DNA from: a virus
Length of the DNA: 64,000 nucleotides
Reading direction: 5' to 3' (one strand)
Virus record (IMG/VR): IMGVR_UViG_3300020200_000009
Location: 25,744-89,743 of that record
Below, in pieces: positions 12,200 to 53,681 of this stretch. Both the position numbers and the translations under genes were made by a program. Positions within the stretch are counted from its first letter, which is position 1, and every line of letters starts with the position of its first letter. The notes under the pieces are model-generated. The model had not been told where the DNA came from and did no database searches. It worked only from the letters and a program-made list of their open reading frames with translations.

Positions 12200-12207
12200 C
12201 ATAAATA
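12200..12207 (+). promoter_or_regulatory. T4-type late promoter (CATAAATA)
   Basis: NATAAATA in the short intergenic gap before gp8; the gp55 late sigma factor is encoded in this window. Confidence 0.7.
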
Positions 12208-13768: not shown

Positions 13769-16700
13769 ATGCCGCAGAATACTAACCTGAATATCGCTCC
13801 TTATTTTGACGACTTTGATAAGGACAAGAATTTCTACAGAGTCCTCTTTAGACCTGGATTTCCTATTCAGGCAAGAGAACTCACTACCATGCAATCGATT
13901 CTGCAGAATCAGATTGAATCGATTGGTCAACACTTCTTTAAAGAAGGGTCCATGGTCATCCCAGGACAAGTTGGTTATGACCTTAATGTGCAAGCTGTTA
14001 TTCTTCAGCAATCATTCCTTGGTGTTGATATTGAAACGTATCGAGAGCAATTGAATGGGCAAATTATTGAAGGTATTACTACGGGAGTTAAAGCAAAAGT
14101 ACTTTATTCAATCTCAGCAGAAGAATCGGATCGTGGTTATATCACATTATATGTAAAATACGTTGACTCGGGTGATACTGTATCAACAGAAAATTTTAAA
14201 ACATTCCAACCAAATGAGCAACTTCTTGCAGAAAAAGAAATCACATTTGGTGCAACCTTAATTGAAATCGGGTCTCCGTTTGCTCAACTTTTACCAGCAA
14301 ACGCCACTTCACTTGCATCATCAGCATATATTAATGCTGGTGTATATTTTATGAGAGGGCATTTTGTAGATGTCCAATCTGCATATTTGATTCTTGACCA
14401 ATATGGTAATAATCCATCATATAGAATTGGTCTTGAAATAAGCGAATCAATTGTCACTCCAGAGGATGACCCCGAGCTCAATGACAATGCAGCAGGGTCG
14501 TCAAACTATGCAGCACCAGGTGGACATAGATTCAGAATTAAAACATCTCTTACTAAGAAAGTAATTTCAGATGAAACTGATAAAAATTTCATTGAATTAC
14601 TTCGTATTAATAATAGTAAGGTTGAGCAATTTGTTAATGCAACTGCATACTCTGAGTTAGAAAAGAGTCTTGCACGTCGCACGTATGAAGAATCTGGTGA
14701 TTATGTAATTGAATCAATTACAGCTAAAGCACGAGAGCAACTTGATGATGGATTTAATAATGGTGTGTATCGCCCTGGAGAATTGTCAGCACAGAAAAAT
14801 CTAGCGTCTGATGATTTTGTTACATTTGAAGTATCTCCTGGAAGAGCATACGTTAAAGGATATCGAACTGAGTTTTTAGTGCCTCAGTATGTAGATTGCC
14901 CAAAACCAAGAGATTATGAAAGTGTGCAAAATAGCATTCTTTCATTCAGAGTAGGTAACTTCGTTAAGGTATATGATGTATATGGTTGGCCAGATTTAAC
15001 TGGAGAAGGAGTCACGAAAGCATACCAAGTGCTTGAATTATATGATAATTGGACTATTGGCACCACCAATACGGTTGTAGGCACAATGATTGGGCGTACA
15101 CGCACCATTCAAATGCAACTAGATTCTGGTGAGGTATATGATATGTGGATTTTCGATCCACAAATGTTTACTGCTATTAATTTTGCAGCAGGAAATCAGG
15201 CGGTAATAGTTGGAGATGTATTAGTAGGAAGGACAAGTGGTGCTAGAGGATTTGTTGCTCAAGCCCCTGGCGGTACATCATGTATGCTTGAGCAAGTTTC
15301 GGGAGTATTTTTAAATGGAGAAGTGCTTCTGAGAGATAACAGAGTAGTTGGCACTATGACCGCTGCACATACTTACAATCTTACTGATGTTAGAACTTGC
15401 CGTGGTAGAAATAATAACAATGCAATTATTTTTGGAGCAAACTGGCAATTAAATGACCAGCAAGAAATTGAATCATCCACAGTAACAATTGACCAGACTG
15501 GCGGCACTATTACTGGATTCCGTACAAAATTTGCTAATGATTTAAGACCTGGTGATGTAATTACTCCTACTAATACTACTCCAACAGGTAATAATACTCT
15601 TAGAATTACAAGAGTAAACCCAACACAAATTTCCGTGAGCAGTGGAAATGCGTATACTGGGGCACCAGTATCATCACACATTTTTAATTATCTAACTCAA
15701 GTAGCGAAGATTGATTCTGCGCTTAAAAAAGGCACGGTGGCTAGTGGAGAATTTGCATCTCTTACTAGATTAAGACCATTTATCTTCCAAAAAGATTATC
15801 AAGATGGTGAGATGTCTGTTGACTGCGCTCGCGTATCTATGAGGTCTATTACTGATGAATCCTTCTTTGTATATCGCACGTTTACTAATAAGACAGTAGT
15901 TGCTGGTGGCATCACAGTATCTCTGCCAGAATCTGAGCAATTTGCATCGTTAGATAATGAAAACTATGTTTTAACTATCTTGGCACAAAACGGATCTGCA
16001 TATCCTGTCGGAAAAAATCTTGATATTGATGCACTTAATGATGATGGCACTCTTACTGTTACATTTGGTGCAGATAGACAGTCAATTACAATTTCTGGAT
16101 TGACTAATGTGCAAACAGTTAAATTGACTGCACTGATATCAAAAAATATTGTTACTAGAAAAATCAAAACTGCATCAAAGATGCGTGCTATGAAAGTTAT
16201 ACGCACGCAGAATAATAATGATGTGCAGAAATTTGGACTAGCATATGGTAATTTATACGGCACTCGTATTGAAGACAATGAAATATCATTTGCGTTAAAT
16301 GATGTTTATAAGATTCATGCAGTATACGAATCAGAAGATGATTCTGATGCTAGTCCTCCATACATTGTGTTGCAGAATCCAACATTCTTTGATAATGGTA
16401 GTGTAGTTATTGGTAAAACATCTGGTGCACGTGGTAGAGTTATTCAATTTATCAACAGCACATTAAGATTATATTTTATCTCTCTTAACAATATTCCATT
16501 TATAGCAGGTGAGCAAATTGATGGAGTTGATGATGATAATATCCAATTAGTAGGATTTGTAGATGATGCTGAGGGATCTATTTTCAAAGGTAGTAAAGTA
16601 ATTACTACTCAATTTGAATTGGATTCGGGACAGAAACCACATTTCTATGATGTGTCTCGCATGATTCGTTTGCCAGGTTTTTCGGCACCGATTCGTAAAG

Positions 16701-19700
16701 TAATGGTTATCTTTGATTACTTCTTACACGAATCATCTGGTGATTACTTCTCAGCGCAATCATATACAGGTATTGGATTTAAAGATATTCCAAAATATAA
16801 ATTAGATGGGTCCATCAACTGGATTAGAGACCAAGTTGACTTCCGTCCTGGTGTTGGAGAATTGGCATCTGGCACTGGATCTATCACTGCACCATTCTTT
16901 GTAAATTGTGCATCATTGGATTTTGGTGCTCGTCAGTTTGATACTTCAGGTGGAGCTGGTGGGTCTACAATCTTTGATGTGCCTAAAGTAAATACTGAAA
17001 TTAGATTTGACTATACTTATTATATTCCAAGAGCATCAAAACTTTTCTTAACTCATGACAATCAATTAAAGATTGTAAATGGTGCATCTCACCCAGAACT
17101 GCCACCCCCAGATAATATTCAGAATGCTATGTTACTCGCATCTATTGAAATGCGAGCATATGTATATGATGTAGAAAGAGATGTAATCATCAGACCAGAA
17201 ATCATTCGTCGTTATACGATGAAAGACCTTGGGGATATAGAAACTCGTCTACGTAATGTTGAATATTATACTGCACTTTCTTTACTTGAATCTCAAGCAG
17301 AAAATACAAAAACATATGATGACAATGGGTTTGACCGTTTAAAGAATGGTTATGTTGTGGACGATTTCACAGACCATAGCATTGGAGATGTGTTTAACGT
17401 AGATTATAAATGCTCTCTGGATTTCAAAGAAGGTTTCCTTAGACCTTCTCACTATACAACAAATGTGCCATTACAATTGAATTTAGATGCATCTACAGAT
17501 GTTGTAAAAACTGTAGGGAATATGGTCCTTCTTCCATATGAAGATTTGGCTATTATAACTCAACCATATGCATCTCGTACTGAAAATGTTAATCCATTCA
17601 ACGTGTTTGCATTTATTGGTAGAGTTGACCTTTCCCCTGCTTCAGATGATTGGGTGGATATCGATCGTCTACCTGCTCGTATAGAAAACGTAGAAGGTGA
17701 TTTTTCTGCTGTTTCTAGAGATTTACAAGTTGACCAAAACGGATTCGCTCCTATTCAATGGGGGTCGTGGGAGACTAACTGGACTGGAGAATCTTTAGTT
17801 TCAACTAGTCAGTTCACGGGCGACGGTAGTTTTGCACAAGGTGGTCGTCGTCTCGGTCGTTTAGGACACGGACAAGGACAGCAACCAATCTTCGTGCATG
17901 AAAGACGCACATGGAGGGTAGTAAATAACCAAGCACGTCAGGGTGTAAGGACAAGAGTAACCCCAAGAGTTGACCAAAAATCATTGGGCGATACTATCCT
18001 TTCGCAATCTGTAATTCCTTGGGTGCGCTCTAGAAATGTTGGTTTTAACATTGAGAGAGCTAAGCCTCGCACAAGAATGTATCTATTCTTTGATGGAGTA
18101 AACATTACAAATTATGTAACACCAAAAATTATTGAGTTGACAAAGAGTAGCACTCAAGATACAAACACAAATGAAACTCCATTCGTGGTTGGCGAAACTG
18201 TAATAGGACAAACCTCAGGTTGTCGTCTTCGTGTTGCTCCTGCAAATGATGGTTATAAAACTGACCCATATGGTGTCGGCACCGCTCAACTTGCAGAATC
18301 CTATGCATCACAAACCAATTATTTAAATATTGACATTACAGCAATGGCAGAAAGTGTTAATCCAAATTTCTATGGAAATGTATTAACAGGTGAAGTATTA
18401 GTTGGACAAACATCAGGTGCTAGAGCAATTGTTAGAGACCGTCGTATTCTCTGTGATAATATTGGGCAAACAATCGGAACATTCTTTATTCCGTCTCCAA
18501 AAATTGATTCAAATCCACGTTGGGCAACTGGCACCAGAACTGTAAGATTTACAACATCACCAACAAATGATAAAACGCCTGGCACGGTAGATTCTTCTGC
18601 AGAGACTACATATACTGCCTCAGGTCAATTAAGAGTTATACGTGAAAATATTCTTGCAGTACGTAATGCAGAACTTGTTAGAGATACTGTATCGGATGAA
18701 AGAACTGTTATCACTACTAGGACAGATGAGAGACAAATTGGATGGATTGACCCGTTAGCACAATCCTTTATTGTAGATGAGCAAGGCGGAGTATTCTTAA
18801 CAGGTGTTGATGTATTCTTTAGAACTAAAGATGATACTATTCCAATCTCCATGCAAATTCGAACCATGGAAAATGGATATCCGACTAAAGATATTCTTCC
18901 GTTCTCTGATACTACGCTAAGTCCAATAGAAGTTGAATTGTCAGAAAACGCTGCAATTCCAACTAGATTTACATTTAGGTCTCCAGTATACATTAAGTCA
19001 TCGATAGAATATTGCTTTGTGCTCTTATCAGACTCAAACTCATATAATGTTTGGATTTCTAGAATGGGTGATATTGATGTATCAGGCACCAGAACTATTT
19101 CCGAACAACCATATGCAGGTGTGCTATTTAAATCGCAAAACGCATCAACGTGGACAGCAGACCAATATGAAGATTTGAAATTTACAGTTTATCGTGCTGA
19201 CTTTGTATCAAATATTGGTACTGCAATATTTAATAATGCAGAATTAGGTAAAGGAAATTATGGTATTCATAACTTAATTGAAAATCCTATTGAAACTCTT
19301 AAACCAAACCAGCAATTGGTATTAGCAACTGACCAGAATTACAACTTCACAGTTGGAGCCAGAATTGTACAGGAACCCTCAGGTGCATCTGCTACGGTTA
19401 AAGAGTTTGATTCAGTTTCAAATCCAGAAGTATTAAAAATTACTGATATATCTGGTATTTTCTCTGCTGGATTCTTAGATGCTAATGGTAATGCATTCCA
19501 AGGATTGTCATCTTCACAATCAGTAGCAACTATTGTTTTGTCAGCCGTTTATAACGGCACATTCGTAGTTGGTGATATAGTCACTGGCAGCACATCTAAT
19601 GCTGATGGTGTTGTTACATCTTATGCTGCTAATACTCTAACCCTTAACTATGTTGGTAAGAGCTTTAGCACTTCAGATACTTTGACAGCACCAAGTGGTG

Positions 19701-21088
19701 TAAGTGCAACTATTACATCCATTAATTATAGTGGAGATTCTCGTAATGCATATCCAACTGCAGCACCTTCTTATCCTTCTGATGATAAGGAAGTATTAGT
19801 GCGTCATAGAAATCATGGTATGCACCAACGAACAAATAATGTATTGATTGAAGGTGTAGTTTCTGAAGTGCCACCAACAACCCTAACAACAACTTTAACC
19901 GTAGGATCATCAACGATTCAAATTCAAGATGCATCTCAATTCCACAGAATTATTGGTGGAGCAACTATAGGTAACCTAAATCCTGGTTATATTAAAATCA
20001 ATAATGAGTTGATTCAATATGCTGGAATTTCAGATAACGGTCAAACAATTACTGTTGCAACTGGCGGCAGAGGAGCAAGCGGCACTGCTGATGTTGAGCA
20101 CCCATCTGGTAGCGTAGTTGAATGTTACAATCTTGATGGAATTCCCCTGGTTGATATTAATAAACTTCACCAAAAACTTGAGTGTCCATGGATGGATACA
20201 TATATGTTAGCCACTAATCACGTAGCAACTAATGGAATTCGTGCAGGTGGCACTAATGCTTATGGCACACAAAACGTGCAGTTTGAGGTATTGACTCCAA
20301 CAGTATCTACTATGGTATTGCCACAGACACAAATTGTAGCTCGTGTAAATACGACAACTGCAACTTCAGTTGGAGATGGTGGAGGAGAAGGTGGGTCTTC
20401 TCCAATTGACCAAGCGTCATTTATTAATAATGGAAACTTTACAGATGTTGTATTGAATAACAAAAACATTTTCTCATCTCCTCAAATGATTGCTTCTAAG
20501 GTCAATGAAGATAATGAATTAGACGGAAATAAATCCTTTACGATGGCTGTTGAATTGACAACAGAAAAGCCTACTCTTTCTCCATGTATTGACCTTGACC
20601 GCACTTCATTAATCTGCACAACCAATAGAATTAATATGTGGCCAGGTGGACCTAATGTTTATGGTCAACAGAATCAGATTGATAGAACTCAAGATGTTTC
20701 TACCTTCCCAATTGGTGACCAGAATGACGCTGTGTATATTACAAGACTTGCACGTTTAGCTAAAGAAGCTCGCTCGCTGAAGGTTGATTTCCAAATCGCT
20801 CGTCATCCTACTACTGAAGTTAAAATTTACTATAGAGCATTTAATACTGGCGACGCAGCAGACTATAATACTCTTGGTTGGACAATTATGCCTCTACCAA
20901 CAAGTAATATTAATGCAGCAGAAGCATATGATACTTCACCTACAGACCAATTCTTGTGGAAAGATTATTCATATGAAGTAAGAGGTCTAAGTTTTAACGC
21001 ATTCCAAGTTAAAATTGTTATGAGATCTAAGAGTCAAGCTAATGTGCCACTCATTGCAGATTTACGTGCTATTGCACTTGCTACATAA
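13769..21088 (+). CDS. Large virion structural protein, VrlC-like / DUF4815 family
   Basis: N-terminal PYFDDFD..KNFYRVLFRPGFPIQARELTTMQSILQNQ, LARRTYEESGDY, DPLAQSF, GVLFKSQNASTWTADQYEDLKF and terminal DLRAIALA; directly follows gp8. Confidence 0.85.
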   Translation: MPQNTNLNIAPYFDDFDKDKNFYRVLFRPGFPIQARELTTMQSILQNQIESIGQHFFKEGSMVIPGQVGYDLNVQAVILQQSFLGVDIETYREQLNGQIIEGITTGVKAKVLYSISAEESDRGYITLYVKYVDSGDTVSTENFKTFQPNEQLLAEKEITFGATLIEIGSPFAQLLPANATSLASSAYINAGVYFMRGHFVDVQSAYLILDQYGNNPSYRIGLEISESIVTPEDDPELNDNAAGSSNYAAPGGHRFRIKTSLTKKVISDETDKNFIELLRINNSKVEQFVNATAYSELEKSLARRTYEESGDYVIESITAKAREQLDDGFNNGVYRPGELSAQKNLASDDFVTFEVSPGRAYVKGYRTEFLVPQYVDCPKPRDYESVQNSILSFRVGNFVKVYDVYGWPDLTGEGVTKAYQVLELYDNWTIGTTNTVVGTMIGRTRTIQMQLDSGEVYDMWIFDPQMFTAINFAAGNQAVIVGDVLVGRTSGARGFVAQAPGGTSCMLEQVSGVFLNGEVLLRDNRVVGTMTAAHTYNLTDVRTCRGRNNNNAIIFGANWQLNDQQEIESSTVTIDQTGGTITGFRTKFANDLRPGDVITPTNTTPTGNNTLRITRVNPTQISVSSGNAYTGAPVSSHIFNYLTQVAKIDSALKKGTVASGEFASLTRLRPFIFQKDYQDGEMSVDCARVSMRSITDESFFVYRTFTNKTVVAGGITVSLPESEQFASLDNENYVLTILAQNGSAYPVGKNLDIDALNDDGTLTVTFGADRQSITISGLTNVQTVKLTALISKNIVTRKIKTASKMRAMKVIRTQNNNDVQKFGLAYGNLYGTRIEDNEISFALNDVYKIHAVYESEDDSDASPPYIVLQNPTFFDNGSVVIGKTSGARGRVIQFINSTLRLYFISLNNIPFIAGEQIDGVDDDNIQLVGFVDDAEGSIFKGSKVITTQFELDSGQKPHFYDVSRMIRLPGFSAPIRKVMVIFDYFLHESSGDYFSAQSYTGIGFKDIPKYKLDGSINWIRDQVDFRPGVGELASGTGSITAPFFVNCASLDFGARQFDTSGGAGGSTIFDVPKVNTEIRFDYTYYIPRASKLFLTHDNQLKIVNGASHPELPPPDNIQNAMLLASIEMRAYVYDVERDVIIRPEIIRRYTMKDLGDIETRLRNVEYYTALSLLESQAENTKTYDDNGFDRLKNGYVVDDFTDHSIGDVFNVDYKCSLDFKEGFLRPSHYTTNVPLQLNLDASTDVVKTVGNMVLLPYEDLAIITQPYASRTENVNPFNVFAFIGRVDLSPASDDWVDIDRLPARIENVEGDFSAVSRDLQVDQNGFAPIQWGSWETNWTGESLVSTSQFTGDGSFAQGGRRLGRLGHGQGQQPIFVHERRTWRVVNNQARQGVRTRVTPRVDQKSLGDTILSQSVIPWVRSRNVGFNIERAKPRTRMYLFFDGVNITNYVTPKIIELTKSSTQDTNTNETPFVVGETVIGQTSGCRLRVAPANDGYKTDPYGVGTAQLAESYASQTNYLNIDITAMAESVNPNFYGNVLTGEVLVGQTSGARAIVRDRRILCDNIGQTIGTFFIPSPKIDSNPRWATGTRTVRFTTSPTNDKTPGTVDSSAETTYTASGQLRVIRENILAVRNAELVRDTVSDERTVITTRTDERQIGWIDPLAQSFIVDEQGGVFLTGVDVFFRTKDDTIPISMQIRTMENGYPTKDILPFSDTTLSPIEVELSENAAIPTRFTFRSPVYIKSSIEYCFVLLSDSNSYNVWISRMGDIDVSGTRTISEQPYAGVLFKSQNASTWTADQYEDLKFTVYRADFVSNIGTAIFNNAELGKGNYGIHNLIENPIETLKPNQQLVLATDQNYNFTVGARIVQEPSGASATVKEFDSVSNPEVLKITDISGIFSAGFLDANGNAFQGLSSSQSVATIVLSAVYNGTFVVGDIVTGSTSNADGVVTSYAANTLTLNYVGKSFSTSDTLTAPSGVSATITSINYSGDSRNAYPTAAPSYPSDDKEVLVRHRNHGMHQRTNNVLIEGVVSEVPPTTLTTTLTVGSSTIQIQDASQFHRIIGGATIGNLNPGYIKINNELIQYAGISDNGQTITVATGGRGASGTADVEHPSGSVVECYNLDGIPLVDINKLHQKLECPWMDTYMLATNHVATNGIRAGGTNAYGTQNVQFEVLTPTVSTMVLPQTQIVARVNTTTATSVGDGGGEGGSSPIDQASFINNGNFTDVVLNNKNIFSSPQMIASKVNEDNELDGNKSFTMAVELTTEKPTLSPCIDLDRTSLICTTNRINMWPGGPNVYGQQNQIDRTQDVSTFPIGDQNDAVYITRLARLAKEARSLKVDFQIARHPTTEVKIYYRAFNTGDAADYNTLGWTIMPLPTSNINAAEAYDTSPTDQFLWKDYSYEVRGLSFNAFQVKIVMRSKSQANVPLIADLRAIALAT

Positions 21089-21112: not shown

Positions 21113-21158
21113 CAACCCTTACAAGGTTGATTATAATTATTTTTAGATACTATGTCAA
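21113..21158 (-). promoter_or_regulatory. Perfect sigma70-type promoter on the minus strand followed by CAACC-N7-GGTTG palindrome (copy 1)
   Basis: Minus strand reads TTGACA(21158-21153)-tagtatctaaaaataat(17 nt)-TATAAT(21135-21130)-CAACCttgtaagGGTTG(21129-21113). Confidence 0.85.
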
Positions 21159-21442
21159 GTCCTTTTTATTCGCAACCACCTCAACATCCATCAACCGATA
21201 AGATTAATATTTTCAAACCAAATCTTATACCTGTTGAAGGTAGAGAGGGTTGGTTTCGAGACCCAGATACAAATGCAATTGTAAATTGTAATGATACTGA
21301 GTATGATAATTACATGGCATCATATGAGCGCCGTCAAAAGAAAGATTCTAAATTAGAGTCTTTACAAGATGATGTTAATACGCTAAAATCAGATCTCGGT
21401 GAAATCAAAGACCTACTCAAATTATTAACTAAAGGAGAATAA
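21152..21442 (+). CDS. Conserved cyanophage hypothetical protein with C-terminal coiled coil
   Basis: VEG...FRDP.T.AIVN....Y..Y motif plus heptad C-terminus; true start may lie further downstream. Confidence 0.7.
   Translation: MSSPFYSQPPQHPSTDKINIFKPNLIPVEGREGWFRDPDTNAIVNCNDTEYDNYMASYERRQKKDSKLESLQDDVNTLKSDLGEIKDLLKLLTKGE
21361..21389 (+). promoter_or_regulatory. Putative sigma70-type promoter for the 72-aa gene
   Basis: TTTACA-17 nt-TAAAAT inside the 3' end of the preceding ORF. Confidence 0.45.
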
Positions 21443-21662: not shown

Positions 21663-21669
21663 TGCAGCG

Positions 21670-21689
21670 CCCCCATAAGGGGGTTTTTT
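21670..21689 (+). terminator. Rho-independent terminator
   Basis: CCCCC-ATAA-GGGGG hairpin followed by TTTTTT. Confidence 0.75.
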
Positions 21690-21695
21690 ATTACG

Positions 21696-21703
21696 CATAA
21701 ATA
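21696..21703 (+). promoter_or_regulatory. Late promoter (CATAAATA) for the tail fibre gene
   Basis: NATAAATA right after the terminator and about 45 nt upstream of the ATG at 21748. Confidence 0.7.
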
Positions 21704-44979: not shown

Positions 44980-45014
44980 TCCTTTACCACTAATTAAATT
45001 CTTAGGAGCAAAAA

Positions 45015-46385
45015 ATGTTTAACGCAGAACACCTCCAGGAAAAGTGGAACCCCATTCTTGAGCATTCAGAGCTCGATCCCATCAAGGATACATACAGAAA
45101 GGCGGTTACCTCTATTCTTCTGGAAAATCAAGAAAAATTCCTTCGCGAAGAGCGTGGGATGCTTACAGAAGCGGCACCTACCAACTCATTGGGTGGCGCT
45201 GGTTATACAGGTAGCAGCACAGCAACAGGTCCTGTTGCAGGTTTCGACCCAGTGCTCATCTCCCTGATTCGTCGTTCGATGCCTAAGCTTATTGCTTATG
45301 ACATCTGCGGTGTGCAACCAATGACTGGTCCTACTGGTCTTATCTTCGCAATGCGCTCAACTGAAGGCACCGCTCGCGATATCGCTGCTGGAGCTACTGA
45401 GGCATTCTTCAACGAAGCAAACACCGAGCATTCTTCCGAGAATAGCGGTAACTCACTTGCTTCAAACACTCAAACAGGCACCAACCCTGGTCTCCTGTAT
45501 GATGCTGCAGCTCAGTACACCCAAGGTGGCACGGGTATGACCACTGCTCAGTCAGAAGCACTTGGTGATGCAGCAGGTAATCACTTCCGTGAAATGGGCT
45601 TCTCAATCGAGAAGGTAACCGTTACCGCTAAGTCACGTGCTCTGAAAGCAGAATACTCACTGGAGCTCGCACAAGACCTTAAGGCTGTGCATGGTCTGGA
45701 TGCTGAGTCTGAGCTGGCAAACATTCTGTCAACCGAAGTGCTGGCAGAAATCAACCGCGAAGTGGTTCGCACAGTGTATCGTATTGCACGTCCTGGTGCA
45801 CAAAACAACACCGCTAACGCTGGTGTGTTTGACCTTGACGTTGATTCCAACGGTCGTTGGTCGGTTGAGAAATTCAAGGGTCTGCTCTTCCAAATTGAGC
45901 GTGACATGAATGCAATCGGTCATGAGACTCGTCGCGGGAAGGGCAACATTCTCATCTGCTCTGCTGACGTTGCTTCGGCACTGTCAATGGCAGGTGTGCT
46001 TGACTACTCCAGCGGTATCTCTGCTGCTGTTGGTGGTCTGAGCAACAACGTAGATGACAACTCCAGCACTCTGGTGGGCACCCTCAACGGTCGCATCAAA
46101 GTGTATGTTGACCCATATTCGGCAAACGTTTCTGACAACCACTTCTATGTGGCAGGTTATAAGGGTGGCAGCGCATATGACGCTGGTCTCTTCTACTGCC
46201 CATATGTGCCCCTGCAGATGGTACGTGCCGTTGGACAAGACACCTTCCAGCCCAAGATTGGCTTCAAGACCCGCTACGGAATGGTTGCAAACCCATTCGC
46301 AGAAGGTCTGACCCAGGGTCAAGGTGCTCTCACCGCAAACGCAAACCGTTACTATCGCCGCGTGAAGGTTACCAACCTCATGTGA
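45015..46385 (+). CDS. gp23: Major capsid protein gp23
   Basis: DICGVQPMTGPTGLIFAMR, AKSRALKAEYSLELAQDLKAVHGLDAE, FQPKIGFKTRYG. Confidence 0.99.
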   Translation: MFNAEHLQEKWNPILEHSELDPIKDTYRKAVTSILLENQEKFLREERGMLTEAAPTNSLGGAGYTGSSTATGPVAGFDPVLISLIRRSMPKLIAYDICGVQPMTGPTGLIFAMRSTEGTARDIAAGATEAFFNEANTEHSSENSGNSLASNTQTGTNPGLLYDAAAQYTQGGTGMTTAQSEALGDAAGNHFREMGFSIEKVTVTAKSRALKAEYSLELAQDLKAVHGLDAESELANILSTEVLAEINREVVRTVYRIARPGAQNNTANAGVFDLDVDSNGRWSVEKFKGLLFQIERDMNAIGHETRRGKGNILICSADVASALSMAGVLDYSSGISAAVGGLSNNVDDNSSTLVGTLNGRIKVYVDPYSANVSDNHFYVAGYKGGSAYDAGLFYCPYVPLQMVRAVGQDTFQPKIGFKTRYGMVANPFAEGLTQGQGALTANANRYYRRVKVTNLM

Positions 46386-46411
46386 GCAATCGGACATAAA
46401 ATAATAAACTT

Positions 46412-46434
46412 AGCACCCTTCGGGGTGCTTTTTT
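46412..46434 (+). terminator. Rho-independent terminator with cUUCGg tetraloop
   Basis: AGCACCC-TTCG-GGGTGCT followed by a T run, just after gp23. Confidence 0.92.
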
Positions 46435-46463
46435 ATTAAATAGTATATTATGAATAACCAGAG

Positions 46464-46661
46464 ATGCCTGGCGATACTCCAGTTACTAAACAAGAAGTTC
46501 AAGAGATGATTGATGCTGCTATACGCAAGCACAATCGGAATGCTTCTATTATTTCTATGTGTGTTGGTTGGTTTGTCCTTGCTTTGTTTGCTGAAGGACT
46601 TTTAAGACTTATAGGCGTTATCCCACCACTACTACCATGGCTCAACATTACCCTGAAATAA
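46464..46661 (+). CDS. Small membrane protein
   Basis: IDAAIRKHNRNASIISM followed by a hydrophobic helix; TTAAATA upstream. Confidence 0.65.
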   Translation: MPGDTPVTKQEVQEMIDAAIRKHNRNASIISMCVGWFVLALFAEGLLRLIGVIPPLLPWLNITLK

Positions 46662-46834
46662 TCGGGGTCTCACTCTTACTAATATTTCTTGCTACAATGA
46701 CCTATCATGGAATCATGATTCATAGAGGCTTGCGGGGTTATAGACATCATGCAAGAGAAACAAATGAGTCGATAAATATGAGAAGAAGAATAGAAGAGTT
46801 ACTACAGGATAAAATATATGACGACCTGGAATAA
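46637..46834 (+). CDS. Small membrane-anchored hypothetical protein
   Basis: 65 aa with one hydrophobic helix; overlaps both neighbours. Confidence 0.55.
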   Translation: MAQHYPEIIGVSLLLIFLATMTYHGIMIHRGLRGYRHHARETNESINMRRRIEELLQDKIYDDLE

Positions 46835-47369
46835 ACAGATAGAAAATAGAAATTTTCTATCACCAATTGGATTCAAATTTATGCTAGCAAAATTTCCTAA
46901 AGTAGCATATTTTTGTCAGTCTGCAAATATTCCAGGTATTACTTTAGGGATTAGTAATCAATCAACACCATATAGAGGACTACCCCTCGAAGGGTTTATG
47001 ACTTTTGAGCCTCTTAGTCTTTCATTCATTATAGATGAAGACCTTGAGAATTATATGATTCTCCACAACTGGATTCGCGCTCTTGGCACACCTAATAACA
47101 CTAGGGAAAGAGTTGAGTATCGTAATAAGATGGAATCAATATTTGGTAACAGCGATTTGTACGCTGATGCCACTCTTACTATTTTAAATAGTAACCTCAG
47201 AAGAAACTTTGATATTGTGTTTCAAGACCTTTTCCCAGAGTCCTTGAATGCTTTGGAATTTAGTGCTACAATAGATGGCACAGAGTATGCCATGGCGCAA
47301 GTGCAATTTAGATATCTTGCATATGAAGTCCGCACTAAATCTGGAGATCGTGATAAGAGACTTGACTAA
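46818..47369 (+). CDS. gp3: Tail completion/sheath stabilizer gp3
   Basis: NRNFLSPIGFKF, FCQSANIPGI, IIDEDLENY..LHNW; standard position between gp23 and uvsY. Confidence 0.88.
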   Translation: MTTWNKQIENRNFLSPIGFKFMLAKFPKVAYFCQSANIPGITLGISNQSTPYRGLPLEGFMTFEPLSLSFIIDEDLENYMILHNWIRALGTPNNTRERVEYRNKMESIFGNSDLYADATLTILNSNLRRNFDIVFQDLFPESLNALEFSATIDGTEYAMAQVQFRYLAYEVRTKSGDRDKRLD

Positions 47370-47812
47370 TGAATCTTGAAAAAATTGAGCAGATGTGGGC
47401 AAAGGATTCTGAATCATTTTTTGACCACAGAGACTTGCCAGAATTACTGGCAAACGATAGTATGGAAACCCCAAGACTTCACGCTAAGTATCTACAATTT
47501 TATAATCAATTTAAATTGATGCTATCTGAAGCAGAAGTTAAGTATAGACAACTTTATAGAGAGAAGTTTGAATACTATACTGGAAAAGCACCAGCATCTG
47601 TATACAAAGAAAACCCCTTTGACTTGAAGGTGCTCAAAGGAGATATTCCGATGTATATTGACTCGGACCCAGAGCTATGCAAAACTAAACAGAAAATTGA
47701 CTACCTTGAAACTTGTATAAATTCTATTGATAGGATTCTTAAGCAAATCGACAGTCGTGGATATGCTATCAAAAATACTATCGAAATTATCAAATATTAT
47801 GGTATTAGATGA
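47369..47812 (+). CDS. uvsY: Recombination mediator UvsY
   Basis: P.LHAKY, YYTGKA...Y...PFDLKV, RGYAIKN. Confidence 0.9.
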   Translation: MNLEKIEQMWAKDSESFFDHRDLPELLANDSMETPRLHAKYLQFYNQFKLMLSEAEVKYRQLYREKFEYYTGKAPASVYKENPFDLKVLKGDIPMYIDSDPELCKTKQKIDYLETCINSIDRILKQIDSRGYAIKNTIEIIKYYGIR

Positions 47813-49269
47813 TTACTATTGTAAAGAAGAACGAAATCTATTTAAAGGTCGAAAGTGAGCAACATATCCATAAGGAATTGAGTGAGCACTTTTCGTTTGA
47901 TGTGCCTGGTGCAAAATTCATGCCACAATATAAATCCCGTGTATGGGATGGAAAGATTCGTTTATACTCTCCTGGCACAGGAGAAATATATGTGGGTCTT
48001 TATGATTATCTTATTGAGTATCTAGAAAATAAAGGGTATGAATATGTTATTCAACACAGTAAGTTTTATGGAATTCCCAATGAAACTGACGAATCTATTA
48101 CACCTGAAAATGTTGCATCTTTTGTTAGGTCTTTAAATCTACCCTTTAAGATCAGAGACTACCAACTTAAAGCACTTTTCTCTGCACTTAGAGACAATAG
48201 AAAATTATTATTATCACCTACAGGGTCTGGAAAATCTCTAATTATTTACACCCTAGTGCGTTGGCACTTGCAGCATGATAGAAATATTCTTATCATTGTG
48301 CCTACAACATCTCTAGTTTCGCAATTAAAGAAAGACTTCAATGACTATGGGTGGTATGCTGACCACTACTGTCATGAAATTATGGCAGGTAGAGATAAGT
48401 ATACACATAAAGAAGTTGTTATTTCAACATGGCAATCTATCTACAAAGAGCCTCGCAAATTCTTTGAAAGGTTTGATGTGATAATTGGAGATGAAGCACA
48501 CCTTTATAAAGCAAAAAGTCTGTCAGGCATTCTCACAAAATGCCATGATGCAAAGTATAGAGTCGGGCTGACAGGCACCTTGGATGGAATGCACACGCAT
48601 CAACTTGTACTTGAGGGGTTGTTTGGTCGGTGCGACAAGGTGACGAGTACTGCTGCGTTGATGCAGAAGGGACAATTGACTCCTCTAAAGGTAAAGATTC
48701 TTCTGTTGAAGCATGGTTATGTTCCATTTGATTATTATCAACAAGAGATGGATTATATAGTATCCCATCCTTCACGAAACAATCTAATTTGTAACCTTGC
48801 GAAAGATTTAAATGGAAATACATTGATACTATTTAACTATATCGAGAAGCACGGAGACCCCTTATGGGAATTGCTAAATAGTAAAGTCAGTGGGGACCGC
48901 AAAATATTTTTTATTCACGGCGGAGTTGATGCAGTCCAAAGGGAAGAAGCAAGACAAATTTGCGAAACAGAAAAGGATGCTATTATCCTTGCATCATATG
49001 GTACTTTTTCTACAGGTATTAATATTCGTAACCTACATAATATAATTTTTGCATCTCCATCAAAATCGAGAGTAAGAAATCTTCAATCGATTGGACGGGT
49101 TTTGAGAAAGGGTGATAATAAAGCACAGGCTATATTATATGATATTGCCGACGACTGCTCTAGAAATTCCTCTCACAATTATACACTTCGACATCTCATT
49201 GAAAGAATGAAAATATATGACGAAGAAAAATTTGATTATGAAATCACCAAAGTCAATCTAAAAAAATGA
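47809..49269 (+). CDS. uvsW: SF2 DNA/RNA-DNA helicase UvsW
   Basis: WDGKIRL, SPTGSGKS, DEAH, GLTGT, QSIGRVLR. Confidence 0.96.
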   Translation: MITIVKKNEIYLKVESEQHIHKELSEHFSFDVPGAKFMPQYKSRVWDGKIRLYSPGTGEIYVGLYDYLIEYLENKGYEYVIQHSKFYGIPNETDESITPENVASFVRSLNLPFKIRDYQLKALFSALRDNRKLLLSPTGSGKSLIIYTLVRWHLQHDRNILIIVPTTSLVSQLKKDFNDYGWYADHYCHEIMAGRDKYTHKEVVISTWQSIYKEPRKFFERFDVIIGDEAHLYKAKSLSGILTKCHDAKYRVGLTGTLDGMHTHQLVLEGLFGRCDKVTSTAALMQKGQLTPLKVKILLLKHGYVPFDYYQQEMDYIVSHPSRNNLICNLAKDLNGNTLILFNYIEKHGDPLWELLNSKVSGDRKIFFIHGGVDAVQREEARQICETEKDAIILASYGTFSTGINIRNLHNIIFASPSKSRVRNLQSIGRVLRKGDNKAQAILYDIADDCSRNSSHNYTLRHLIERMKIYDEEKFDYEITKVNLKK

Positions 49270-49697
49270 TTAATTACATTCGCCACGATAACGAATTCTA
49301 TGGTAGTTTAAAGTTGACCTCAGGAGAAGAAGTCCTAGGAGAAATGTTTGCTGTAGAAGAAGATGGTATGTCAGTGTTTTATATTTCAAACCCTGTTTCT
49401 GCACATATGCATCAAGTTGAAAGAGATGGTCAACTTAGCATGGCAGCAGGATTTGTGAAGTGGCAACTTTGGTCTGATGAAGAATTTTTTATTGTCAAAG
49501 AACCAGACATCATTACTTGTGCGCCAATGTCTCAAGAAGCAGTTATGATGTATAAATTATGGTGGAGAAAAGAAAGCGGAAAAAACGATAGTGAAACTAA
49601 TGATAGTTACTCTATAGATATGAATGAAAATATGGGGTTAGTCGGTAAAGTTTCAGAAGCTCGTATTAAACTAGAAGATATTTTTAAGAACTCATAG
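49266..49697 (+). CDS. Conserved cyanophage hypothetical protein (Sm-like KL.SGEE motif)
   Basis: EFYGSLKLTSGEEV; usual gene between uvsW and gp55. Confidence 0.75.
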   Translation: MINYIRHDNEFYGSLKLTSGEEVLGEMFAVEEDGMSVFYISNPVSAHMHQVERDGQLSMAAGFVKWQLWSDEEFFIVKEPDIITCAPMSQEAVMMYKLWWRKESGKNDSETNDSYSIDMNENMGLVGKVSEARIKLEDIFKNS

Positions 49698-49707
49698 AGG
49701 TAACTTT

Positions 49708-49753
49708 CAACCCTGACATGGTTGATTATAATTACTTTTATTCTGTATGTCAA
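49708..49753 (-). promoter_or_regulatory. Perfect sigma70-type promoter on the minus strand followed by CAACC-N7-GGTTG palindrome (copy 2)
   Basis: Minus strand reads TTGACA(49753-49748)-tacagaataaaagtaat(17 nt)-TATAAT(49730-49725)-CAACCatgtcagGGTTG(49724-49708). Confidence 0.85.
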
Positions 49754-49755
49754 CC

Positions 49756-49784
49756 TTGACATATCGTGAAGAATATTATATTAT
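49756..49784 (+). promoter_or_regulatory. Sigma70-type promoter for gp55
   Basis: TTGACA(49756-49761)-17 nt-TATTAT(49779-49784). Confidence 0.8.
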
Positions 49785-49809
49785 TATTTGGTGACCAAGT
49801 TATCGGCAT

Positions 49810-50289
49810 ATGTATACTTTAATGAGCGTTAAGAAAAAACAACACTACGTAGATAACAAACAATTTCTTGACGAGATAGTTAAGTATCGCCAAGCGGTTG
49901 ACGCTGCAAAAAAATTAGATAAACCAAAACCACGTATCAGTAGGTATATTGGAGACTGTTTTTTGAAGATAGCAACTCACCTGTCATATCGCCCTAACTT
50001 CATTAACTACATGTATAAAGAGGATATGATTTCAGACGGTGTGGAAAATTGTGTCCAGTATATAGATAATTTTGACCCAGCAAAATCAACAAATCCATTT
50101 GCATATTTTACTCAAATTGTGTATTATGCTTTTTTACGTAGGATTGCCAAAGAGAAGCGTCAAATGGATATCAGAGATAAGTTAATTGAGAAGAATGGTT
50201 ACGACCAAGTATTCCATTCAGATACAAACGAGGACTCGTCAGAACTTAATTCAATTAAGAGTCGTATTGAAACTAGCATGAGATATTGA
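49810..50289 (+). CDS. gp55: Late-transcription sigma factor gp55
   Basis: HYVDNKQF, YIGDCFLKIA.HLSYRPNF.NY...DMISDG.ENC, NPFAYFTQI.YYAFLRRI.KEK. Confidence 0.96.
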   Translation: MYTLMSVKKKQHYVDNKQFLDEIVKYRQAVDAAKKLDKPKPRISRYIGDCFLKIATHLSYRPNFINYMYKEDMISDGVENCVQYIDNFDPAKSTNPFAYFTQIVYYAFLRRIAKEKRQMDIRDKLIEKNGYDQVFHSDTNEDSSELNSIKSRIETSMRY

Positions 50290-50295
50290 TACTAA

Positions 50296-50355
50296 GTGTG
50301 CCAGTTGATAAACTGTCTACTAAATAAATCAAAACTCTATGAAACGGTTTATAGT
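50296..50355 (+). promoter_or_regulatory. Cyanomyophage early-type promoter (upstream imperfect palindrome plus -10)
   Basis: GTGTGCCAGTTGATAAACTGTCTAC; TATAGT starts at 50350, 49 nt after CCAGTT (50301). Confidence 0.7.
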
Positions 50356-50521
50356 AACTTTGTTATTCAATGATGGGACACTGACCAATTACATAATTGA
50401 CTCATATGCTTCAGAGTGGCTTGTACTCCATTCTCAAATAGCACATAAAGAAAATATTAAATCATATTCAATTATTGATTCCTCTCGTCTTAAATTCTAT
50501 GAAAATCCTCTTAATTACTGA
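50339..50521 (+). CDS. 60-aa hypothetical ORF (uncertain)
   Basis: Fills the gp55-gp47 gap after a CTAAATA motif, but overlaps the -10 box of the early-type promoter. Confidence 0.35.
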   Translation: MKRFIVTLLFNDGTLTNYIIDSYASEWLVLHSQIAHKENIKSYSIIDSSRLKFYENPLNY

Positions 50522-51533
50522 CCAACATTTCGGAGTTAGAAATGATAATCAGTTTTTTGTGGAGAGATATAGACGCTTTTATGATACTGTAGTTATTCCA
50601 TATATTGATGAGCATAGTATTACTCACGTAATTTGCCTTGGTGATACGTTCGACCGTAGGAAAAGTATTAACTTTTCTTCTCTTGCTGCTGCCAAAGAGA
50701 TGTGGTTTGACCAATTAGCATCACGAGGTGTTACCTTGACTATGCTCTGTGGCAATCATGACATTTACTATAAGAATACTTTAAAGATTAATGCTCCTAG
50801 TCTTCTTTTATCTGAGTATTCCAACGTAGATATCATAGACCATCCTACCCAATGCTCAGTCGGGGGAGTCCCTACTCTTCTGTTACCTTGGATTTGTGAT
50901 GAAAATAGAGCAGAGACAATGCAAAAGATGTCTAAGACAGATGCACGACTTTGCCTTGGACATCTAGAACTAAATGGATTTGAAGCAATCCCTGGACATA
51001 AAATGGAGCATGGGGATGACCCAGATATTTTTTCCCAGTTTGAGTTAGTATGTTCTGGGCATTTTCACATGAGAAGTCGTAAAGCAAATATTCAATATCT
51101 CGGTAATCCCTACCAATTATACTGGAATGATTACGGTCAAACTAGAGGGTTTCATATCCTAAATACTGAGGATCTCTCCCTAGAGTTTGTGAGTAATCCT
51201 TATAATACATTTAACAAACTTTATTATAAAAATAATCTTAAACTTACAGAGAAACATCTTAGTCAACTTAGAGGCACATATGTAAAGTTAATTGTTGAAG
51301 ATAAAATTGACCAAGTTAAGTTTGATAAAACGGTAAGAATTTTACAGTCAGCAAATCTTGCTGACCTTAAAATCGTAGAAGATGTAACCTATGATTTGGG
51401 AGAGGTTGATTGTGAAGGGATGGAAATTGAGGATACTTTAAGTATTTTAGAAAAATGTGTTGCAGAATTTAGTAATAAGGATTCAATTTTTGGTATTTTA
51501 AAATCTTTATATGTAGAAGCGCAGGAGGTGTGA
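50499..51533 (+). CDS. gp47: Recombination endonuclease gp47 (Mre11/SbcD-like)
   Basis: ITDQHFG, LGDTFD, GNHD, GHLE, SGHFH metallophosphoesterase motifs. Confidence 0.95.
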   Translation: MKILLITDQHFGVRNDNQFFVERYRRFYDTVVIPYIDEHSITHVICLGDTFDRRKSINFSSLAAAKEMWFDQLASRGVTLTMLCGNHDIYYKNTLKINAPSLLLSEYSNVDIIDHPTQCSVGGVPTLLLPWICDENRAETMQKMSKTDARLCLGHLELNGFEAIPGHKMEHGDDPDIFSQFELVCSGHFHMRSRKANIQYLGNPYQLYWNDYGQTRGFHILNTEDLSLEFVSNPYNTFNKLYYKNNLKLTEKHLSQLRGTYVKLIVEDKIDQVKFDKTVRILQSANLADLKIVEDVTYDLGEVDCEGMEIEDTLSILEKCVAEFSNKDSIFGILKSLYVEAQEV

Positions 51534-51794
51534 GTGTACGTTTTACTCGATAAACAGACTGGCGGTGTCTATGCCGTAAGAGATGACGAAACCGTTGAGA
51601 GAGTCGTCCAGTTGTTTCTTGACAAAGACGATGCAACTCGCTATTATGATATGCTACTAGCAACTGATTACCCAAGAATTTTGGAGGTTGCTGAGGTAGA
51701 AGAAGATGCTGTTAAAGACAACTGCAGACAATACGGTTATCTTTTTACAGTAATTACACCTGACGATTTTGTTATCCCACCCCCACACACATGA
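51534..51794 (+). CDS. DUF3110-like small protein (GTG start)
   Basis: GGAGG SD; GVYAV...F..KDDA.RY..LL.A.D.P...C..YGY...IPP pattern recalled from cyanobacterial DUF3110. Confidence 0.65.
   Translation: MYVLLDKQTGGVYAVRDDETVERVVQLFLDKDDATRYYDMLLATDYPRILEVAEVEEDAVKDNCRQYGYLFTVITPDDFVIPPPHT
51619..51647 (+). promoter_or_regulatory. Intragenic sigma70-type promoter upstream of gp46
   Basis: TTGACA-17 nt-TATTAT. Confidence 0.55.
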
Positions 51795-53509
51795 TTGTAT
51801 TTGAAAATATCCGTTGGAAAAATTTCCTGAGCACAGGAAATGCCATGACGGAAGTTAAACTAAATGATAGTTATTCATCTCTTATTGTGGGTCAGAATGG
51901 TGCTGGTAAGTCCACGATTCTAGATGCATTGTGTTTTGTTTTATTTAATAAACCGTTTCGTAAAATTAATAAACCACAACTCGTAAATAGTATCAACGAA
52001 AGAGAATGTGTAGTTGAGATAGAATTTAAAATTGGCACAGTAAACTATAAGGTTGTCCGTGGTATCAAACCTAATATCTTTGAGATTTATAGGAATCAAA
52101 CTCTCATCGATCAAGATGCTGCAAACAGAGATTATCAAAAATATCTAGAGCAATCAATTCTCAAATTTAATTTTAAGTCTTTCACTCAAGTTGTTATTCT
52201 TGGGAGTAGCACTTTTGTTCCTTTCATGCAACTTCCTGCTGCTCATCGAAGAGAAGTTATTGAAGACCTTCTTGACATTCAAATCTTTTCACGGATGAAT
52301 ACTATCCTTAAAGATAGAATAAAAGATACAAAAGATTCTGTGACTCTATGTAATCATAATTTAAAACTTGCTGAGCAAAAAGTAAATATGCAACGCAACT
52401 CAATTGCAAATCTTGAGAAATTGAATAGCGATCATATATCTAATCTTCAAGCAAAGTTTACTTCTAATGAGCAAAGGTATAGTGATAATATTCAGAGAAT
52501 TTCTGCCGTTGATAGTCAGATTGAAAACTTGACTACATTAGTTGCAGATTTAGATGCTATGGAATCTAAGACCGAATCTCTAAAAGACATGCGCTCTAAG
52601 ATTCAACAAAATTTAAAGAAGGCAGTTAGTGATATTAATTTTTATCAAGACAATGATGTATGCCCGACTTGCTCTCAGACTCTTCATGCTGACCATAAGC
52701 ACGAAAAGATAGATGAGTCTATTAAAAAAGAGAGAAAGTTTCGTGAGGGAATGGCACAGATTACTGATAATATTAATGATATAAATTCAAAACTCAAACA
52801 GTGCAAAGAATATCAAAATGAAATCACCAGCCTACACCATCAAATTGCTGGATGGAATCGAGAGAATAGCAAAATTCTAAAAGATAATAAAGAAATTATA
52901 GAGCATGTTAATAAAGAAACTCCAGATATTAATAACGAGAAACGAATCCTATCTAACTATGAAAAAGATTTAAGCACTACTGAGAAAGCATGTGCAGAAA
53001 TCAACATTGAGTATAAAAATCTAATGACAGTTGCTGCGTTGTTGAAGGACGGCGGTATTAAAAGTCAGATCATTAAAAAGTATATTCCTGCAATTAATAC
53101 ACAGATTAATAAATATTTACAGTCTATGGATTTCTTCGTTGGGTTTACTCTCGACGAAGAGTTTAATGAGATTATCAAGTCTCGTTTTCGCGATGAGTTT
53201 TCTTATGCATCTTTTTCTGAAGGTGAAAAGCAGAAGATTGATTTGGCACTTCTCTTTACCTGGAGAGATATTGCCAAGATGAAAAACTCTGCTTCTACAA
53301 ATCTTTTGATTTTAGATGAAGTATTTGATTCTTCTCTTGATATTTCTGCAACAGATGAATTAATGAAAATTCTTAAGGGGCTTGACAAGACCACCAATCT
53401 GTTTGTAATCTCCCATAAGGGAGAGCAGATGCTAGACAAGTTTGATGCTACTCTTAAGTTTGAGAAAGTCAATGATTTCTCCAAGGTTACCAACGATGAA
53501 AATTCCTAA
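51791..53509 (+). CDS. gp46: Recombination ATPase gp46 (Rad50/SbcC-like)
   Basis: WKNFLSTGN, GQNGAGKST, CPTC zinc hook, FSEGEK signature, LILDEVFD, VISH. Confidence 0.97.
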   Translation: MIVFENIRWKNFLSTGNAMTEVKLNDSYSSLIVGQNGAGKSTILDALCFVLFNKPFRKINKPQLVNSINERECVVEIEFKIGTVNYKVVRGIKPNIFEIYRNQTLIDQDAANRDYQKYLEQSILKFNFKSFTQVVILGSSTFVPFMQLPAAHRREVIEDLLDIQIFSRMNTILKDRIKDTKDSVTLCNHNLKLAEQKVNMQRNSIANLEKLNSDHISNLQAKFTSNEQRYSDNIQRISAVDSQIENLTTLVADLDAMESKTESLKDMRSKIQQNLKKAVSDINFYQDNDVCPTCSQTLHADHKHEKIDESIKKERKFREGMAQITDNINDINSKLKQCKEYQNEITSLHHQIAGWNRENSKILKDNKEIIEHVNKETPDINNEKRILSNYEKDLSTTEKACAEINIEYKNLMTVAALLKDGGIKSQIIKKYIPAINTQINKYLQSMDFFVGFTLDEEFNEIIKSRFRDEFSYASFSEGEKQKIDLALLFTWRDIAKMKNSASTNLLILDEVFDSSLDISATDELMKILKGLDKTTNLFVISHKGEQMLDKFDATLKFEKVNDFSKVTNDENS

Positions 53510-53681
53510 CTGGCAACACCATTCCAAAAAAGACCAAAAACGTCACCTTAAACCCCAAGCATTGCGACAAGCACGTGCTAGACGTAACCAGTTGAAAAAG
53601 CGTCTACTCGGACCCTCTGGACCCTCCAGGGGGTCTTACAGTATGGTTACCCACAGCAACCCCTCCTATGTTCACCAGTGA
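53496..53681 (+). CDS. Small basic conserved cyanophage protein
   Basis: Start MKIPNWQHHSKKDQKRHLKPQALRQARARR at 53496. Confidence 0.7.
   Translation: MKIPNWQHHSKKDQKRHLKPQALRQARARRNQLKKRLLGPSGPSRGSYSMVTHSNPSYVHQ
53587..53642 (+). promoter_or_regulatory. Early-type promoter motif (copy 2)
   Basis: ACCAGTTGAAAAAGCGTCTAC; TACAGT starts at 53637, 49 nt after CCAGTT (53588). Confidence 0.55.

Follow-up and report, generated by a model that had tools for sequence, protein, structure and literature searches.

A conserved promoter cassette with a start-site box on the gene-free strand of a T4-like cyanophage, probably an early control element

Why should a phage that keeps its genes on one strand carry perfect host-type promoters on the other? 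We asked this of a window of 64,000 nt, the right-hand 64 kb of the 89.7-kb IMG/VR contig IMGVR_UViG_3300020200_000009, which derives from a T4-like cyanomyovirus and is rated about 50% complete. Our best reading, to which we give roughly even odds, is that each site is a cassette of about 50 bp in which an early promoter for the host polymerase would be joined to an operator-like box at its start site, and that the backward copies would fire into late operons.

Two backward promoters and their surroundings

A pattern search for TTGACA-N17-TATAAT found two matches in the window, both on the minus strand, at 21158–21130 and 49753–49725. Shuffled windows contain 0.04 such matches on average, and 0 of 100 shuffles reached two. 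Both sites agree with the sigma70 consensus at 12 of 12 hexamer positions and have a 17-nt spacer. Directly after each −10 stands CAACC-N7-GGTTG, at 21113–21129 and 49708–49724, and these are its only exact copies in the window. A sequence-only reading of this DNA had described both the promoters and the box, and the search bears it out. The features that concern us are as follows.

21153–21158, minus strand: −35 hexamer of backward promoter 1, invariant in the alignment of copies; the ATG with which the 96-aa gene opens overlaps the complement of this hexamer
21130–21135, minus strand: −10 hexamer of backward promoter 1, an exact consensus match
21113–21129, minus strand: start-site box (17-bp palindrome), copy 1, with a predicted start near 21122
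49748–49753, minus strand: −35 hexamer of backward promoter 2, an exact consensus match
49725–49730, minus strand: −10 hexamer of backward promoter 2, an exact consensus match
49708–49724, minus strand: start-site box, copy 2, with a predicted start near 49717
49756–49784, plus strand: gp55 sense promoter, 11 of 12 consensus positions; its −35 lies 2 bp from the backward −35
12201–12207, plus strand: late-promoter core at the head of the operon that contains site 1
13769–21088, plus strand: 2439-aa structural gene (phrog_358); promoter 1 points into its 3' end
21152–21442, plus strand: 96-aa virion protein gene (phrog_473), without a late-promoter core of its own
21669–21684, plus strand: strong terminator-like hairpin that ends the late operon containing site 1
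46772–46778, plus strand: late-promoter core heading a run of tail tube, uvsY, uvsW and Sm-like genes, with site 2 at its far end
49266–49697, plus strand: Sm-like gene (PF16243), after uvsY and uvsW; promoter 2 points into it
49810–50289, plus strand: gp55, the late sigma factor

The long ORFs of the window are all on the plus strand, as is every credible gene. The four longest minus-strand ORFs (four tested of many) lie inside plus-strand ORFs and match no PHROG family, and an Rfam search of the window at gathering thresholds returned 0 families. Behind copy 1 the reading frame is TTG-TAA, and behind copy 2 it is 11 codons long. Hence, the minus strand holds no credible gene and neither promoter drives a real ORF, as had been claimed. 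The exact identity of the two copies extends over only about 15 nt. That reading had also proposed to look for the element in the rest of this genome; within the whole 89.7-kb contig, about half of the genome, there is no third copy of the cassette. On the plus strand, at 60700–60745, a −35/−10 pair spaced by 16 nt precedes a sequence that partly resembles the 3' half of the box. This stretch sits within the end of a 222-aa ORF and may be either a degenerate sense copy or chance.

Site 1 occupies the 63-nt gap between the 2439-aa structural gene and the 96-aa virion protein gene, and site 2 lies between the Sm-like gene, itself downstream of uvsY and uvsW, and gp55. The sequence-only reading had set one copy just past uvsY-uvsW and the other beside the long tail-fibre gene. 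The first placement describes site 2, with the Sm-like gene intervening; the second describes site 1 loosely, since a fibre-like gene of 2301 aa begins about 600 nt beyond it. The gene at 49266–49697, labelled 'methylamine utilization' in the records, matches the Sm_like family PF16243 (5.2e-22).

The 7-base core of T4-type late promoters occurs eight times in the window, always on the plus strand (12201, 21697, 30215, 31530, 41396, 43902, 46772 and 53109), versus 24 occurrences expected from shuffles, and six of the eight stand 14–45 nt upstream of an ORF. Hence, being strongly avoided elsewhere, the cores map the late operons of this phage. The core at 21697 follows directly on the hairpin at 21669–21684, and the core before it is the one at 12201. 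Hence, site 1 lies inside a late operon that needs read-through. The hairpin itself is G/C-rich, carries a T run, comes right after a 72-aa ORF and forms a clear operon boundary between two giant genes. Both backward promoters point into runs headed by a late-promoter core. Downstream of them, the minus strand offers only weak terminator-like sites, at 20372–20355 and 47949–47934. In search of transcript ends, we looked in metagenome contigs for the sequence immediately downstream of the predicted start; all seven matches were internal to their contigs and thus uninformative. A search of sequencing runs with window positions 45,000–54,000 returned no RNA dataset that contains this DNA.

This operon map bears on one alternative, in which the box would work on the plus strand as a terminator or insulator: a hairpin followed by the U-rich promoter spacer, with polymerase parked on the consensus promoter as an additional roadblock. 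The cassette would then separate transcription units and yield no useful RNA. A scan flagged both boxes as terminator-like on the plus strand, site 2 falls precisely at the junction of the uvsW run with gp55, which has its own promoter, and the stem-loops of PeSL (promoter-early stem-loop) cassettes act as terminators, according to the accessible text of PMC2839356. However, box hairpins are weak as RNA, with stems of 5–7 bp, energies of −4.8 to −6.6 kcal/mol and z-scores of −0.85 to −2.38; on the plus strand at the two sites the values are −4.8 and −6.3 kcal/mol, with z-scores of −0.85 and −2.38. The plus-strand hairpin at 21669–21684 is far stronger, and the U-rich side of the sense copies in relatives is not turned toward any gene. 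At site 1 the operon structure rules a terminator out, since the genes downstream lack a late core of their own and termination would silence them. Overall, we consider a terminator or insulator improbable.

Distribution and conservation of the cassette

The full motif, with 22 specified bases, is carried by 43 IMG/VR stretches, which we classed by the adjoining proteins. In 26 of them it faces backward between the giant structural gene and the phrog_473 gene, as at site 1 (setting A); in 9 it is again backward, with the Sm-like gene on one side and gp55 on the other, as at site 2 (setting B); and in 8 it is sense, with the start codon of a CpeT-family gene 2 nt after the box (setting C). The proteins flanking these 43 loci are 53–92% identical to those of the window. 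The two sites are real, conserved copies of a promoter cassette of T4-like cyanophages.

IMG/VR contains 92 exact occurrences of the 17-mer box, 83 of which abut a −10 that has its −35 exactly 17 nt upstream. The other nine comprise eight in unrelated GC-rich coding sequence and one of another kind. Hence, in phage contexts the box never stands alone. In cellular genomes (185,579 species) we found a single box after a −10, on a mis-binned phage contig: NHGE01000026.1 (L156; match at 2047–2069), filed under the Euryarchaeota MAG TMED129, has the Sm-like/gp55 spacer with the backward cassette and so represents cyanophage DNA that was binned with an archaeal MAG.

Complete and cultured genomes gave the same picture. 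A complete 186-kb relative (G001), all of whose genes are on one strand, has three copies: settings A and B backward, and setting C forward before cpeT. The gene-free strand of this relative holds no exact −35 plus −10-type pairs other than those of the two backward copies, and the forward TTGACA promoters apart from that of setting C are without the box. A second complete relative has one copy by pattern. Family-wide, the core of the element is a box of 15–16 bases placed 0–1 nt after the −10. In this generalised form it follows a −10 in 13 of 14 cultured cyanomyovirus genomes, and the reversed control gave 0 matches. With a −35 required, which dropped three pattern matches lacking one, we counted three copies in S-SM1; two each in S-SZBM1, S-PM2, P-SSM4, Syn30, S-P4, S-E7 and S-H35; one each in Syn9 (setting B), P-SSM2 and S-B64; and 0 in P-TIM40. 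ACG-2014a and S-MbCM100 have two copies each, one with a poor −35. The Syn9 match runs from 123710 to 123690 on the minus strand of NC_008296.2 and opens with the −10, directly past which the backward start is predicted. The sense copies precede cpeT, CP12-cpeT, a 2OG-Fe(II) oxygenase gene or a 67-aa ORFan. The sequence-only reading had proposed a search in related cyanophages, and the 43 stretches and 13 of 14 cultured genomes answer it: the element is conserved at syntenic positions.

In the record of S-MbCM100, a 36-aa hypothetical protein (S-MbCM100_126; L277, 338–448) is annotated across the Sm-like/gp55 cassette and is probably no gene. More generally, small ORFs called across the cassette are probably spurious, which is a warning for annotation. 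Our literature searches returned no cyanophage description of the cassette, within a reach that stopped short of the Syn9 start-site study (Doron et al. 2016), reportedly a published transcriptome study of that phage. In the accessible text of Sullivan et al. 2010 (PMC3037559), whose promoter logos are in a supplementary figure, we found no mention of such a motif, and a paper on a podovirus MarR protein (PMC9692554) does not, in its accessible part, concern T4-like phages and has no bearing here.

We also sampled gp55 loci by protein instead of motif (n = 80). The backward promoter and box were present at 48 of the 80; the other 32 have a short spacer with the sense promoter only (one of the 32 judged from a looser scan alone). 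The gp55 sense promoter is conserved in relatives both with and without the backward copy. Among 12 loci found through the 96-aa protein, setting A was present at three, belonging to the closest relatives; elsewhere the two genes abut. Some members of the family thus do without the backward copy: it is absent from 32 of the 80 gp55 loci and from P-TIM40, and setting A occurs at only three of the 12 loci just named. This counts against our preferred reading.

Where the element is kept, it is kept closely. We compared mean pairwise identity in 33 distinct gp55 lineages that carry it. Third codon positions of gp55 reached 57% and the 17-nt spacer 54%, against 89% for the −10, 91% for the box and 91% for the first and second codon positions of gp55. 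The −35 was fixed by the way sites were extracted for this comparison; in a looser scan the same hexamer appeared in every true copy. The spacer drifts, but the hexamers and the box are held as firmly as the codon positions one and two of gp55. In setting A, phages differ in the frame in which the 96-aa gene reads through the −35, and yet the hexamer is kept. Hence, selection acts on the DNA motif. The claim that identical boxes and arms reflect selection and not recent duplication is thereby supported, since relatives with flanking proteins 53–92% identical retain the hexamers, the 17-nt spacing and the box.

A second alternative takes the cassette for a mobile promoter linker of the PeSL type, spreading as a patch for recombination and leaving backward copies as orphans with no regulatory role. 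Its several genomic settings, varied cargo genes and patchy distribution agree with such spread, and the uniformity of boxes within genomes (below) is compatible with exchange between copies, as with the recombination and mini-circles that PeSLs mediate, without being specific to it. Against it, the orphans keep exact hexamers and spacing at fixed syntenic sites where synonymous sites are near saturation; a genome has only one to three copies of the cassette, which sit in core modules instead of hyperplastic regions; and the exact identity of the window copies is short for homologous exchange. We regard a linker with orphan copies as unlikely, though somewhat less so than a terminator.

The locations near uvsY-uvsW and a fibre gene had also suggested R-loop origins of replication, in which the backward transcript would stay annealed and prime the leading strand, as at T4 oriF and oriG, until UvsW removed it. 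As described in the accessible text of Kreuzer and Brister 2010 (PMC3016281), oriF(uvsY) and oriG(34) consist of a middle-mode promoter followed by an A+T-rich unwinding element, and the transcripts of oriF, oriG and oriE need not encode anything. The cassettes resemble them in being strong promoters without a gene behind them, in the position of one site near uvsY-uvsW, and in the conserved G run at the start of the predicted RNA. They differ in having a full host-type −35 and −10 in place of a MotA-dependent middle-mode promoter, and a consistent unwinding tract is not seen at the two sites: 50–100 nt after the box, A+T content is average at site 1 (45th–55th percentile) and moderately high at site 2 (91st–93rd). 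Cumulative GC skew rises monotonically, without inflection at the two contig copies or the three G001 copies; since skew says little about phages whose replication relies mostly on recombination, this is a lack of support and no refutation. The same cassette stands in the sense direction before ordinary genes such as cpeT, CP12-cpeT, the oxygenase gene and the 67-aa ORFan, and many relatives, as at the 32 gp55 loci, do without a backward copy. The origin claim thus finds no support, and we think it very improbable, the least probable of the alternatives considered here.

The gp55 control region and the start-site box

An early promoter with an operator-like box remains our preferred reading. 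In the window, the backward and gp55 promoters stand back to back, with predicted starts about 74 bp apart. In Syn9 (L310, 1500–1560), P-SSM4 (L274) and the Syn30 group (L275) the two promoters interlock, each −35 lying within the spacer of the other. In the interlocked arrangement one polymerase should exclude the other. Lambda PR and PRM are likewise divergent, back-to-back promoters that share a control region, where operators overlap the core promoters and occupancy of one promoter affects its partner. By analogy, the gp55 region may be viewed as two promoters in one short control region with an operator-like box over a core promoter; it differs in that no repressor is known, the predicted starts are about 74 bp apart in the window, with a shorter distance predicted for the interlocked promoters, and one arm has no gene.

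We place the start at the purine of an invariant TG step, near 21122 and 49717, because of the usual spacing from −10 to +1 and because this pyrimidine-purine step is invariant. The box would then span about −6 to +11, a symmetric site overlapping the predicted start. The RNA of the promoter itself would carry the 3' arm only. Hence, the symmetry should matter on DNA or in read-through RNA.

The degree of symmetry varies across the family. Members of the canonical group share almost the same 17-mer, even in the loop. Family-wide, invariance is confined to the outer three bases of each arm, the loop's TG step and some of the 3' half, and this half, which corresponds to the predicted first 10 nt of the RNA, is the best conserved part of the box. 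Among 30 distinct sequences, 82.2% of cells are paired versus 80.2% in shuffled alignments (7 of 500 shuffles reach the observed value), a count in which six rows with longer loops are out of register and were scored as unpaired. The covariation score in the arms is a modest 0.091 versus 0.070 (2 of 500). At the outermost pair, 12 sequences have CG, two have AU and one has UA. The palindrome over the start site, as the sequence-only reading had called it, is fairly described as an operator-like site; across the family, however, it is only partly palindromic, and the remainder is a sequence-specific box.

Positions 4–5 of the box fall into three classes. All ten multi-copy lineages (the window; G001 with G004; G003; S-SM1; S-SZBM1; S-PM2; P-SSM4; the Syn30 group; the ACG-2014a group; S-H35) are uniform in class within the genome, which only 6 of 200,000 label shuffles match. 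Spacers and −10 hexamers differ among copies of the same genome despite their common class. Concordance is incomplete elsewhere in the box: the window copies differ at two loop positions, and the box of the forward copy in G001 differs from those of its backward copies. Settings B and C both occur in lineages of unlike class (e.g. S-SM1 and ACG-2014a). Hence, at least two loci changed in parallel. Three phages isolated on WH7803 (S-PM2, Syn30 and S-MbCM100) differ in box class.

These patterns bear on a third alternative, in which the box acts through RNA or polymerase, either as a tuned discriminator and initial transcribed sequence or as a conserved 5' end of the transcript, with a Shine-Dalgarno-like run in the sense copies. 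The strong conservation of the 3' half fits this, as does the start codon 2 nt after the box in eight sense copies. HTH_18, HTH_3, RHH_1 and MarR profiles gave no candidate regulator over the cut-off in 5–16 genomes, which also leans this way. However, the positions that change in step sit upstream of the predicted start and hence would lie outside the RNA, the outer arm pair changes on both sides in three sequences, and a preference of the host polymerase alone is insufficient when phages of the same host differ in class. An action through RNA or polymerase thus seems doubtful, on a par with the mobile linker.

The preferred reading instead places a protein factor at the box; the empty profile searches count against it, as does the incomplete concordance of the copies. 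The agreement in class is somewhat better explained by a phage-encoded factor that reads the box than by short-patch exchange between cassettes, because the neighbouring −10 and spacer are not homogenised; however, PeSL crossovers, in the accessible text of PMC2839356, were mapped to the stem-loop itself. Since the variants are concordant within a genome but unlike among phages of one host strain, the factor would probably be encoded by the phage. Most likely, the box serves as the site at which a sequence-specific factor would shut these few promoters. As to individual genes, an AraC-type annotation two genes past cpeT in ACG-2014a was rejected as the regulator since it is not conserved, and for the 67-aa gene that follows one sense copy of S-SM1 we found no relative in G000, G001 or the other loci compared.

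Proposed role and related systems

Both cassettes probably act as an early control element. As we see it, a consensus promoter for unmodified host RNA polymerase with its primary sigma factor, followed by a box of 15–17 bp, would fire early, ahead of the takeover by gp55; in relatives, the same cassette would drive ordinary early or auxiliary genes. Copy 1, within a late operon, would fire into the 3' end of the giant structural gene, and copy 2 backward at the end of the tail tube-uvsY-uvsW-Sm-like run. Early antisense transcription may oppose read-through of the late operons, and copy 2 may also compete with the gp55 promoter for polymerase. A factor, probably encoded by the phage, would then bind the box and shut these promoters.

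At both sites the promoter stands opposite a gene, the arrangement of a cis-antisense RNA gene. Antisense RNA against late operons is plausible because both copies would fire into operons headed by a late-promoter core. A precedent exists in PAK_P3 and PAK_P4, where, according to the accessible text of PMC5563952, early antisense RNAs arise inside structural genes, from promoters opposite late or structural genes as here; the antisense promoters of PAK_P4 are more active early and were proposed to hold back late genes. There the RNAs were detected experimentally, whereas the cyanophage promoters are known from their sequence, and the accessible text describes no shared consensus promoter with a start-site box at syntenic sites.

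The nearest described kind of element is the PeSL cassette of the T4-type phages RB49 and phi1 (Arbiol et al. 2010, PMC2839356; Comeau et al. 2014, PMC4122927), whose accessible texts do not mention cyanophages. It too is a repeated early promoter of sigma70 consensus with a small inverted repeat, here with 12 of 12 hexamer positions; in one subclass the stem-loop follows the −10 (PMC2839356). It is portable and stands before accessory genes, as do the sense copies of the relatives. However, according to the same texts, PeSLs number about 50 per genome, mostly in hyperplastic regions, versus one to three in core modules here; they are oriented with a downstream ORFan, its Shine-Dalgarno sequence and start codon, whereas both contig copies are backward; and they have stable G/C-rich terminator stems, often of polyG/polyC, whereas the box forms a weak hairpin without a G/C run. 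Backward copies at syntenic sites, a sequence-specific box concordant within genomes, and the coupling to the gp55 promoter go beyond the PeSL description.

A more specific version of the preferred reading, which we hold only tentatively and as unlikely in its full form, makes of these cassettes a mini-regulon defined by the box: one to three host-type promoters per genome that a co-evolving phage protein would switch off. The copy beside gp55 would compete or interlock with its promoter, so that shutting it would release the late sigma factor, and the copy in the late operon would quiet structural genes early through convergent transcription. If true, cyanophages, which work without AsiA and MotA, would have here a switch that times their passage from early to late transcription.

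Cyanomyoviruses lack alt, modA, modB, motA and asiA, the genes of the T4 proteins that reprogramme polymerase, according to the accessible text of PMC2984593. Hence, the timing of early, middle and late expression in cyanophages is only partly understood. Even if the cassette were merely a portable promoter with orphan copies, it would extend the PeSL idea to cyanophages. A conserved promoter that bears the box and is coupled to that of the late sigma factor gene, with a further copy aimed into a late operon, offers a concrete cis element for this timing, and one that is present in cultured phages, Syn9, S-SM1, P-SSM4 and S-PM2 among them.
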